A stretch of DNA of 64,000 nt from a plasmid. The stretch's first letter is position 1, and every line of letters starts with the position of its first letter. The notes beneath the pieces were generated by a model. It was not told the origin of the DNA and searched no databases. It was given only the letters and a program-made list of their open reading frames with translations. The position numbers were made by a program, and so were the translations under genes. Shown in pieces: positions 34,473 through 36,505 of this stretch. The stretch lies in assembly GCF_056712565.1 (NCBI RefSeq), contig NZ_JBWXXM010000002.1; one strand, given 5' to 3'.

Positions 34473-35303
34473 ATGGAGTGTAAAATGACTCAAAACCAGG
34501 GTTCTGAGCCAGTACCGGCGAGCCGGACAGGGCAGCTCATCAGCGCCCGGGATATGGCCATGCAGAAATTCGAAGAAGGGATGCGGTTAATCTCGGAAGC
34601 GTCGGAACTGTGCGGTCTCTCTCTCTTCACCAGCAGAATTATGCAGCCCAACGCATTTGGTCTTCCGTCGTCACTGGATCGCACCATCGAGGAGGGGCGT
34701 AAGGAAATTGACCGTAAAACGTGGAAAAGGCTCTTTGAAGAAACAGGTATGGACCGGTACTGGAACCATAAGCAAAAAGAAGCCTTTAACGAATCCCTTC
34801 GTACGGATCCGCCCGTCGCTTCCCTGGAGATTGTTAAGGGAACATTACAGCATGCACTGGCTAACAGACGAGACACCCTTGCAGAAGGTTTCGTTGATGT
34901 TCTCAACAAGCTTGACCGAAGTTTCAAAAGCAATGCCAGGCAATATACAATGCCAAAAAAGCTTGTTCTTCGGGGGATTTTTCCTAGTGTGAACGTGCTG
35001 AGGTACAACGGTTTCTCGCAGGACAATCACTTTTGTTTACGCGACTTTGAGAATATTGTATGCATCTGTTCTGATACTCCAACACCTGCAACCGGCGGTG
35101 GGCTGAGTATGGTCGACAGGCTGACGGCCATGAGAAATACAGAATTCACAGGCGAGGTCAGTGATGAGAATGGCTGGCGGTGTCGCCTGTTTGAGAATGG
35201 AAACGTTCATATTTGCATCGACAGTATCTCGCTTCTGAATGCTCTGAACGATCTTATCAGCATATATTTTGCAAACCAGCTTCCGGCCGCAGGAAAAAAA
35301 TGA
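34473..35303 (+). CDS. Hypothetical protein (276 aa)
   Basis: ORF preceded by 0.6 kb AT-rich spacer; alternative start MTQNQ at 34485; stop overlaps next start (ATGA). Confidence 0.45.
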   Translation: MECKMTQNQGSEPVPASRTGQLISARDMAMQKFEEGMRLISEASELCGLSLFTSRIMQPNAFGLPSSLDRTIEEGRKEIDRKTWKRLFEETGMDRYWNHKQKEAFNESLRTDPPVASLEIVKGTLQHALANRRDTLAEGFVDVLNKLDRSFKSNARQYTMPKKLVLRGIFPSVNVLRYNGFSQDNHFCLRDFENIVCICSDTPTPATGGGLSMVDRLTAMRNTEFTGEVSDENGWRCRLFENGNVHICIDSISLLNALNDLISIYFANQLPAAGKK

Positions 35304-36505
35304 TGATTGAAAATGATAAAGAAAAAAGCCTGAACGATGCTACCCCGCCAGAGGTGCAGAATGACATCCGCAGCGAATCCACTGAAAAATCAAAGGAAAT
35401 GGGTCGTTCAAGGTACTCATCTATCGCGATGATCGATTACTTCAATGCAATCGAACGTCTGTGCAAAGAGAAAGAAATTAACCCGGAAAATATCGATCTG
35501 AGCTTCAAAGTTCACTGGCTCAGAAACGCTGTTGGCGGCTCGTTTGCAAGGTCACAGGAGATGTTCGCGGAGTACCAGAAGTATGTTAAAGAGGTTCCTG
35601 AAGAGGCCCGTTACCTGGATATACCCGATGAGGTAAAGGTTGCACTCGGCGATATTATCTCGTACATCACCTGGCACTACCGTAGAAGCTATACCGCAAT
35701 ACAGAATGATAGTGTTAAAAAAGCTGAAGCACGTAGCATGCAGCTGGAGGAGGAGGTAACGCAGCTGTTACAGCGGCTTGAGCAAAGCGCTACCGATATG
35801 GATGAGCTGAAACTTGAGAATCAGGCACTACAGGGTCGATTAGAGATCCGGGACAGTACCGTCAAGGAGTTAGAAACAAGGCTGAATGTTGCCGAAGCAG
35901 AACTCGAAACCTGCCATCACCAGTTAGATAGCACACGGCATGAATTGAGCCTCGCACAGCAGTCAAATGACTCACTCTCCCAGCAACTGGCTGAACGTAA
36001 AACAGAGATCGCTGGTCACCTTGAATATCAAAAAAAGCTGAACGAAGAGATCAACACGCAGCGTTCTGATAACGCCGGTCTTTCCAGACAATGCGACCAG
36101 TTAAGTCAGACTGTGTCAGATACAAAGGCAGAGAGGGACAGGTTTGAACAGGAATTGATTGCTGCACAGAACCTTTGTACTGAGCTGAAAAGTGCACTGT
36201 CCGGGAAAGAGGGTGACCTGGTGGCGGTGAATGCCGAGCTTACTGAACTCCATAAACTAAACGAGTCGCTGAGCGCCGACCTGAATAAAGTAACTTTGGT
36301 CAGCCAGGGCTATGAAGCGGAAGTGGCTGAACAAAGCAATGAACTCAAAACGCTCCAGGCCAAAGTAATGAAGCTGGAAGCTACCCTGGAGGCGGAGAAA
36401 ACAATCTCAGAATCCCTAAAAGGCACCATTGATACATTAACTGGTGCAATGGCAGGGGGAGGTACTGGAAAGTCAAAACAGCCGCGTAGCAGAAAAACAT
36501 CATGA
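35300..36505 (+). CDS. Hypothetical protein with long C-terminal coiled coil (402 aa)
   Basis: ATG 35300 overlapping upstream stop; Leu/Glu/Gln-rich heptad-like region; Gly/Lys/Arg-rich tail. Confidence 0.5.
   Translation: MMIENDKEKSLNDATPPEVQNDIRSESTEKSKEMGRSRYSSIAMIDYFNAIERLCKEKEINPENIDLSFKVHWLRNAVGGSFARSQEMFAEYQKYVKEVPEEARYLDIPDEVKVALGDIISYITWHYRRSYTAIQNDSVKKAEARSMQLEEEVTQLLQRLEQSATDMDELKLENQALQGRLEIRDSTVKELETRLNVAEAELETCHHQLDSTRHELSLAQQSNDSLSQQLAERKTEIAGHLEYQKKLNEEINTQRSDNAGLSRQCDQLSQTVSDTKAERDRFEQELIAAQNLCTELKSALSGKEGDLVAVNAELTELHKLNESLSADLNKVTLVSQGYEAEVAEQSNELKTLQAKVMKLEATLEAEKTISESLKGTIDTLTGAMAGGGTGKSKQPRSRKTS

Follow-up and report, generated by a model that had tools for sequence, protein, structure and literature searches.

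KfrA-type proteins share little sequence and have an N-terminal helix-turn-helix (HTH) head and a parallel coiled-coil tail; they autoregulate through operator repeats, act with a helical partner (KfrC), and have a role in plasmid maintenance (PMC7821693, PMC7783346). The plasmid groups listed as KfrA carriers in PMC7821693 are IncP, IncU, IncW, and IncA/C as well as PromA, with IncHI not among them, and the same work names the temperature-sensitive TlpA as a KfrA homologue. A second class of plasmid protein is the YdiA/YgfB family, which carries the Pfam domain DUF4942 (PF13708) and is enriched in leading regions, the part of a plasmid that is first to enter a recipient cell, according to supplementary table 1 of PMC11541004. 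In the literature on DUF4942, ydiA, and IncHI coiled-coil proteins we found no functional study. Here, we describe two overlapping open reading frames, ORF1 and ORF2, in a stretch of 64,000 nucleotides of plasmid DNA (RefSeq assembly GCF_056712565.1, contig NZ_JBWXXM010000002.1; hereafter the window). The pair is a real, conserved backbone operon that joins a member of the DUF4942/YdiA family to a putative remote variant of the KfrA type, and does not amount to a new class of system. Its parts are as follows.

34485–35303, plus strand: ORF1, a DUF4942/YdiA-family protein of 272 amino acids (aa); an alternative start at 34473 gives 276 aa.
35300–36505, plus strand: ORF2, 401 aa, with an acidic N-terminal tail, a head domain, a rod, a conserved C-terminal motif, and a basic tail.
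35405–35704, plus strand: ORF2 head domain (residues ~36–135), predicted all-helical, ~100 aa, with the motif HWLRxxVGGSFxRxQEM.
35705–36451, plus strand: ORF2 predicted coiled-coil rod (residues ~136–384).
35963–36085, plus strand: conserved motif in the middle of the ORF2 rod (residues ~222–262).
36374–36451, plus strand: conserved C-terminal motif of ORF2, LEATLEAEKTISESLKGTIDTLTGAM (residues 359–384).
36452–36502, plus strand: basic C-terminal tail of ORF2, AGGGTGKSKQPRSRKTS, with pI 12.0 and a net charge of ~+5 (residues 386–401).

In the ORF list of the window, both frames lie on the plus strand, ORF1 at 34473–35303 (276 aa) and ORF2 at 35300–36505. The original prediction of a two-gene operon with an ATGA overlap holds: the ATG of ORF2 (35300–35302) lies over the TGA of ORF1 (35301–35303) within AAAAAATGATGATT, and the genes are translationally coupled. 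A frame for the predicted 276-aa first protein is likewise present, but the ATG at 34485 is the most likely start, which gives 272 aa, because GGAG (34475–34478) is located 6 nt upstream, PGAP/RefSeq uses the same start on an identical plasmid, and homologues begin at the same point. The second protein has 401 residues instead of the predicted 402.

The host plasmid is of the IncHI2 type as judged by its gene content, since the plasmid context of the pair includes IncHI-type TrhH, MobI, and the MobH relaxase, and relatives carry tellurite-resistance genes. Across PLSDB, 1177 plasmids match the 2.76-kb segment, 827 of them at an identity of at least 99%; the matching plasmids are large and conjugative, and come from Escherichia, Salmonella, Enterobacter, and Klebsiella. 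Among E. coli genomes, 347 of the 354 places that match this segment are on plasmids. Relatives of ORF2 were found by tblastn on ~1150 plasmids at an identity of at least 90% (IncHI2), and on 282 at ~42% (IncHI1). IncHI2, IncHI1, and chromosomally integrated copies keep the two genes together, the stop of one and the start of the next being coupled or abutting; the original prediction of a co-transcribed pair was right. At diverged loci, where ORF1 is 54–64% identical and ORF2 is ~42% identical in IncHI1-type copies, a coiled-coil gene of 384–407 aa begins 2 nt past the stop of the DUF4942 gene. The order of a divergent DUF6884/DpdC-like gene, the DUF4942 gene, and the coiled-coil gene is kept at these loci, as is that of the convergent downstream genes (a small ORF, DUF1173, a second small ORF, and a Dcm-type methyltransferase), after which follows a staphylococcal-nuclease (SNase) homologue. 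We found this arrangement in four places, namely an E. coli chromosome (L002), a contig carrying Ter genes (L003, where the identity of ORF2 is lower still), an IncHI1B plasmid (L008), and an IncHI1A plasmid (L009). An IncHI3-like MOBH plasmid has a DUF4942 gene (30% identity) with DUF1173, SNase, PLD, and H-NS genes, and is without the coiled-coil partner. The pair is thus core IncHI1/IncHI2 backbone with conserved neighbours. This changes how its surroundings are to be read, as the pair had been taken for an island between the insertion sequences IS1 and IS21. The IS21-family element (36767–38895, with istA/istB on the minus strand) is flanked by a 6-bp target duplication in an alignment to NZ_CP133924, an otherwise 100% identical plasmid that does not contain the element; the plasmid pEco_M21816_274 is identical across the pair and without it. 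The IS21 copy is a strain-specific insertion into conserved IncHI backbone, and the apparent island is therefore an accident of this copy.

ORF1 was assigned from its match to PF13708, which covers residues 77–265 and scores 93.3 bits (E 2e-26; cut-off 25). PF13708 is carried by all close ORF1 homologues, PGAP names the protein "DUF4942 domain-containing protein", and ORF1 also matches phrog_38825 (E 2.5e-100). An end-to-end alignment can be made with the YdiA/YgfB leading-region family, and tblastn with ORF1 gives E values of 1e-7 to 1e-15 at 96–98% coverage against the copies on IncI, IncL/M, and Klebsiella plasmids. The YdiA/YgfB plasmid proteins resemble ORF1 in having the same Pfam domain, a length of ~265–285 aa, shared invariant residues, and a location on conjugative elements. 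They differ in that the identity to ORF1 is only 21–24%, in that the ORF1 gene appears not to be next to oriT in IncHI2, and in that ORF1 is coupled to a coiled-coil partner, whereas the IncI, IncL, and IncHI3-like copies are without one. In our alignment of plasmid and phage DUF4942 members, the only invariant positions are Arg22, Asp76, Trp80, Pro110, Asp187, Gly239, His242, and Asn255. On this sequence evidence, ORF1 is a bona fide DUF4942 protein and a distant YdiA/YgfB relative. Two ORF1 homologues (P0013 and P0023) read as frameshifted in mid-protein, with residues ~130–165 out of frame, which may reflect errors in sequencing or an ORF1 that is now and then inactivated.

An AlphaFold2 (AF2) model of ORF1 has a predicted local distance difference test (pLDDT) score of 66, and is confident in the helical N-terminal half alone. 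ORF1 gave no PADLOC, NCBIfam, or PDB sequence match, and PDB sequence searches with ORF1, the ORF1 family profile, and the ORF2 head profile returned nothing under E 0.02. With the ORF1 profile, a search of genome contigs yielded no relatives and a word-indexed search nothing beyond the subfamily. In phages, DUF4942 homologues lie in early regions among methylase genes. In one of them, gp079 of Rhizobium phage RHph_TM3_3_3 (460 aa), an N-terminal DUF4942 module homologous to ORF1 (~25% identity) is fused to the core of an S-adenosylmethionine (SAM)-dependent amino-methyltransferase (N6-adenine) with the motifs VLEPSAGTG and NPPF. These motifs fall outside DUF4942, and ORF1 ends where the core would begin. 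No methyltransferase match to ORF1 was obtained in Pfam or NCBIfam, and the protein has no SAM-binding or (D/N)PP(Y/F/W) motif; its "DPPV" is without an aromatic residue, and only the proline is invariant. We therefore predict that ORF1 is catalytically bare. The only known-RNA hit in the region, a sub-threshold Rfam match to Hammerhead_HH9 inside ORF1 (34498–34562, minus strand; E 0.034), scores 22 bits against a gathering score of 52, and we take it as chance.

ORF2 belongs to a very narrow family found in IncHI1 and IncHI2 plasmids, with ~10 clusters at 50% identity among 1.8 billion representatives and full-length members that are all 384–415 aa long. As originally predicted, an N-terminal domain precedes ~250 residues of heptad-like sequence; the head is strongly conserved in the family and the rod drifts in sequence. 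The weak structural matches to a model of the head are mostly winged HTH or HTH DNA-binding domains. No proline interrupts the ~250 residues of the rod, one heptad register runs through residues ~127–392, and the 3.5-residue periodicity stands out against 500 shuffles (z = 8.9), in line with the predicted coiled coil. Rod lengths within the family differ by 7, 7, 14, 28, 35, and 11 residues, i.e., by whole heptads or a hendecad, and these changes are on one side of the mid-rod motif. Hydrophobic occupancy of the a and d positions is weaker in the mid-rod region (residues ~197–294), and the C-terminal motif follows the family pattern AEKTIxxSL(K/R)GTI. Because of the unbroken register and the one-sided length changes, the rod is probably continuous and parallel, with a length of ~37 nm. 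An antiparallel fold-back as in SMC or Rad50, prompted by the mid-rod and C-terminal motifs, was rejected on the same grounds. Two further candidates were discarded. The old name "ATP/GTP-binding protein" probably derives from AGGGTGKS in the tail, which fits the PROSITE P-loop pattern; this sequence falls within the disordered tail, and most homologues do not have it. Matches of ORF2 to LmuB, JetC, SMC, Rad50, crescentin, and tape-measure proteins in PADLOC, NCBIfam, PHROGs, and Pfam cover the rod only, and reflect coiled-coil composition. ORF2 does share a long heptad-rich rod with SMC, MukB, Rad50, LmuB, and JetC, but it is far shorter than these ATPases, and has no Walker A/B head, hinge, or fold-back signature.

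The head-plus-coiled-coil architecture that the original prediction associated with plasmid maintenance is that of KfrA. As for KfrA of RK2/R751 and RA3, and TlpA of the Salmonella virulence plasmid, ORF2 is encoded on a plasmid, and is predicted to have a small helical head of a DNA-binding type, globular and N-terminal, followed by a very long alpha-helical coiled coil. Palindromic or repeated candidate operators are present in its leader, and its gene shares a transcript with that of a second protein that is largely helical. The unbroken register and one-sided length changes would be compatible with a parallel rod. Because Pfam KfrA_N matches no ORF2 family member, we built our own KfrA N-terminal profile from 10 sequences (R751 KfrA and nine diverse plasmid homologues). 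An hhalign comparison of this profile with the ORF2 head aligned 66 collinear columns with a score of 19.5 (P 0.0087). This score was reached by 0 of 150 column-permuted controls (mean 10.4, standard deviation 2.3, maximum 18.1), and a reversed profile scored 8.1. The columns lined up are helix 1, a (V/L)Rxx(L/V)GxGSF-helix motif, and the subsequent proline-containing linker. Against R751 KfrA alone, the ORF2 head gave E 0.52. The signal thus appears real but weak, and leaves membership unproven. There are also differences from KfrA. The ORF2 head comprises ~100 aa and includes one more short helix as well as an insertion of 7 residues ahead of the GGS motif; the two genes stand in the opposite order, the partner preceding ORF2; this partner is a DUF4942 protein and not KfrB or KfrC; no korB/incC partition genes adjoin the pair; and ORF2 has in addition the conserved C-terminal motif and the basic tail. 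A KfrA-like mode of action is accordingly offered as the best analogy for ORF2. In the original prediction neither protein could be placed. ORF1 now has a family assignment, and ORF2 has a KfrA-like architecture with a weak profile match above controls. Clear homology to an established partition or structural protein family was looked for and not found for the pair, the link to KfrA being remote.

The region upstream of ORF1 contains several candidate regulatory sites, none of which is assigned to a strand.

33843–34484: AT-rich leader, or divergent regulatory region, between a 126-aa ORF on the minus strand and ORF1.
34110–34140: distal candidate operator, an inverted pair of the 15-bp box TAGTCACTAGTAAAG, as TAGTCACTAGT-N9-ACTAGTGACTA.
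34155–34171: palindrome ACGTGAC-AAC-GTCACGT, with the core GTGAC-N3-GTCAC.
34205–34232: inverted repeat ATGGGATTTA-N8-TAAATCCCAT, with a perfect 10-bp stem and an 8-nt loop.
34365–34396: proximal candidate operator, two overlapping degenerate boxes and TTAGTAAAG-C-CTTTACTAA.

The predicted stretch of about 0.6 kb of AT-rich non-coding DNA is borne out by the 630 bp at 33843–34472, where GC is ~0.38–0.41 compared with ~0.48 in the two genes, and the only frames are chance ORFs of 40–47 aa. The box TAGTCACTAGTAAAG occurs four times within 34110–34386, as the distal inverted pair and a proximal cluster ~250 bp apart; the distal arm at 34126–34140 (minus strand) is a perfect copy. Elsewhere in the window there is one match, with 3 mismatches, so that a total of 5 is found where 0.76 would be expected. 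A perfect copy is also present upstream of ORF1 in L002 and L009, despite identities of only ~64% for ORF1 and ~42% for ORF2, and the proximal site of L002 is a perfect inverted pair, CACTAGTAAAG-G-CTTTACTAGTG, at −68 to −45. In L003 the box is absent and other palindromes are present, and the L003 ORF2 differs exactly in the helix after the two glycines (RIHNATTAF versus SFAR(S/A)QEM). Because the absence of the box and the difference in this helix covary in L003, we infer that the boxes belong to the ORF2 head, with the helix as the putative recognition helix.

Altogether, the leader has four perfect palindromes. The sequence GTGACNNNGTCAC occurs once in the window, with 0.03 occurrences expected by chance, and its core is found as GTGAC-ACT-GTCAC upstream of ORF1 in L002 and L003. 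For the inverted repeat at 34205–34232, the stem is kept and the loop is variable in L002, L008, and L009 (IncHI1-type), and L003 has a different palindrome in the same region (~7644–7675) with a 12-bp stem and a loop that is also 8 nt, a pattern suggestive of a structured element or of a binding site that co-evolves. As single-stranded DNA, 34090–34472 folds better than shuffled sequences (z −5.8 for the plus and −3.3 for the minus strand). A single-strand promoter of the Frpo type was considered and rejected; the folding comes only from short local palindromes, four in number, and no long hairpin is seen in the centroid structure. The leader matched no Rfam family.

Taken together, these observations lead us to favour, tentatively and at somewhat less than even odds, a model where ORF2 is a DNA-binding, autoregulating rod of the KfrA type that acts with the YdiA-like ORF1 in plasmid establishment or maintenance. 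ORF2 would dimerise through its ~37-nm uninterrupted coiled coil, most likely in parallel, and its HTH-like head would bind the TAGTCACTAGTAAAG boxes, which form inverted pairs at the two leader sites ~250 bp apart. Binding to its own leader would autoregulate the operon, and ORF2 may in addition form loops or polymers on plasmid DNA in the manner of KfrA proteins. ORF1 would be the partner of ORF2, as KfrC is for KfrA in RA3, and the pair would serve positioning, protection, or organisation of plasmid DNA, not phage defence. That the ORF1 family appears as a leading-region or establishment family in the supplementary table of PMC11541004 is in line with such a role. Gene structure, family assignments, the coiled-coil signature, conservation, and the clustering and conservation of the boxes are what the analysis shows; DNA binding, autoregulation, the ORF1–ORF2 complex, and the biological role are the inferred parts of this model, and several results weigh against it. 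Pfam KfrA_N (PF11740) gives no match, either to the heads of 14 family members (E up to 10) or to full ORF2 (E up to 1); the hhalign probability for the ORF2 head and our KfrA profile is only 4.6%; and the head is not basic (pI 6.15). No partition genes adjoin the pair. A promoter scan of the leader gave no sigma-70-like site above threshold. The covariation of box and helix comes from only two lineage types, and ORF1 or a third protein could bind the boxes instead. Finally, ORF1 can function alone, because the IncHI3-like plasmid has DUF4942 without a coiled-coil partner.

The main rival to this model puts the weight on ORF1, and is in our estimate unlikely, if worth serious attention. Here, the pair would be an early-establishment or anti-restriction module, with ORF1 acting on incoming plasmid DNA in the recipient and ORF2 as scaffold or tether; ORF1, as a DNA reader derived from a methyltransferase, could shield sites, or it could bring in or control a methyltransferase, for instance the Dcm encoded nearby. 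The leading regions of IncI/K plasmids contain DUF4942 homologues, adjacent to oriT/nikA and together with ardA and psiB, and so does that of the IncL plasmid pOXA-48, with Hha, an antirestriction gene, and ssb, in agreement with the enrichment given in supplementary table 1 of PMC11541004. The phage fusion to an N6-methyltransferase (VLEPSAGTG, NPPF) and the other phage copies among methylase genes point in the same direction, as do the other genes of the IncHI block, i.e., Dcm, the PD-(D/E)XK-like DUF1173, and SNase, together with PLD in relatives. Like leading-region genes, the pair also appears oriented toward the mobI/mobH oriT side. Against this reading, in NZ_CP133924 the pair is located at 127–129 kb and mobI/mobH at ~180 kb with the trh transfer genes between, so that the pair is ~50 kb from mobI/mobH and, as measured to these genes, not near oriT in IncHI2. 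In addition, the leader has only short local palindromes and no long single-strand promoter hairpin of the Frpo type, ORF1 has neither a SAM-binding or (D/N)PP(Y/F) motif nor a methyltransferase match in Pfam, and we found no YdiA-family member with a demonstrated function in the literature. A further reading is that the KfrA-like rod and the YdiA-like protein are parts of a single plasmid-bound complex, where a methyltransferase-derived, catalytically bare DNA reader on a 37-nm tether protects or organises the plasmid during establishment; we consider this doubtful.

Transfer of IncHI plasmids is thermosensitive. This property, also noted for an IncHI2 plasmid in PMC5923156, raises the question of whether ORF2 is a TlpA-like coiled-coil thermosensor and repressor in temperature-dependent IncHI behaviour, with ORF1 as co-regulated cargo. 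ORF2 shares its architecture with KfrA and TlpA, KfrA rods unfold and TlpA binds DNA in a temperature-dependent manner (PMC7821693), and the weaker a/d hydrophobic occupancy at residues ~197–294 would be consistent with such a rod. We nevertheless regard this as quite improbable, as the boxes within the window show no regulon wider than the leader of the operon itself, and the tight translational coupling and co-conservation with ORF1 favour a joint function. That the pair is a plasmid-borne system for phage defence or of an SMC-like kind (such as Lamassu LmuB or Wadjet JetC) is close to refuted and essentially excluded; the original prediction had raised defence systems because of the coiled coil. 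Such a system is suggested by the matches to PADLOC LmuB/JetC and NCBIfam SMC/Rad50 models (E down to 2e-7 and 7e-12), and by nearby defence-related genes, including that of the DpdC-like protein, and BREX in an IncHI1B relative. The matches are confined to coiled-coil segments and stay far below the family cut-offs (43.9 versus 567 bits), ORF2 has no ATPase head, and the P-loop-like pattern at its C terminus is not conserved. The unbroken register and one-sided changes in rod length speak against an SMC-type antiparallel fold-back, and ORF1 matches no PADLOC model.

Downstream of ORF2, two elements complete the locus.

36559–36583, no strand assigned: GC-rich hairpin between convergent genes, with a 9-bp stem of which 6 pairs are GC.
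36569–36766, minus strand: conserved small ORF convergent with ORF2, 67 aa in intact plasmids.

The hairpin, which had been described as a strong terminator, begins 54 nt past the ORF2 stop. On the plus strand it is followed only by GAGTTTTCG, where the T run is TTTT, and because this run is short, a terminator scan called the hairpin terminator-like on the minus strand only. As it overlaps the stop of the convergent 67-aa ORF, we read it as a shared or bidirectional element with a weak T tract, not as a strong terminator. The 67-aa ORF normally follows DUF1173 in the Dcm–DUF1173 operon; in the present plasmid, the IS21 insertion sits in its codon 2 and displaces the first two codons.

Several neighbouring genes were also noted. 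Upstream, a DUF6884 protein of 221 aa (32739–33404, minus strand) strongly matches one PADLOC DpdC model (E 4e-59), of whose 319 positions about the first 233 are covered. Since its counterpart in IncHI1 relatives has 222 aa, the protein is judged to be full length, and not cut by the adjoining IS1. It stands alone as a DpdC-like protein, and no further dpd genes were seen nearby. The 126-aa ORF divergent from ORF1 (33462–33842, minus strand) has no match in Pfam, PADLOC, NCBIfam, or PHROGs, and is missing from this position in IncHI1-type loci, where DUF6884 directly flanks the leader. On the other side, an operon at 38920–41959 (minus strand) encodes a Dcm-type C5 methyltransferase with a DNA_meth_N domain, a small ORF, and DUF1173, for which a PD-(D/E)XK fold without the active-site signature has been proposed in the literature; the methylase may be an orphan accompanied by a dead nuclease, or the two may make up an unusual restriction-modification pair. 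The SNase (thermonuclease) homologue follows the conserved block at 42093–42647 (plus strand). Relatives (L008 and L014) also have a PLD-family protein and an H-NS-family gene; DUF4942, DUF1173, SNase, PLD, and H-NS/Hha co-occur across IncHI1, IncHI2, and IncHI3-like plasmids, and PLD, DUF4942, and Hha recur in the pOXA-48 leading region. In an IncHI1B relative (L010; NZ_ON934552.1, 1–13678), a type 1 BREX system is present in complete form ~10 kb away from the conserved block, and because this system is located beside IS elements, the flank of the block would seem to be a hotspot for accessory or defence insertions.

In Salmonella, E. coli, and Enterobacter, IncHI1 and IncHI2 plasmids are major vehicles of resistance to multiple drugs, colistin, and metals. 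The pair is nearly invariant on more than 1100 sequenced plasmids, and has been annotated only as "DUF4942" together with "hypothetical", "coiled-coil", or "ATP/GTP-binding". It links two poorly understood classes of plasmid protein in a form that is easy to test experimentally, and offers a tractable way to learn what DUF4942/YdiA does, a leading-region family that is very large and has no known role. If ORF1 and ORF2 do form a tethered complex on the plasmid, this would provide the first mechanism for one of the largest uncharacterised leading-region families, present on more than 5000 conjugative plasmids in PLSDB.

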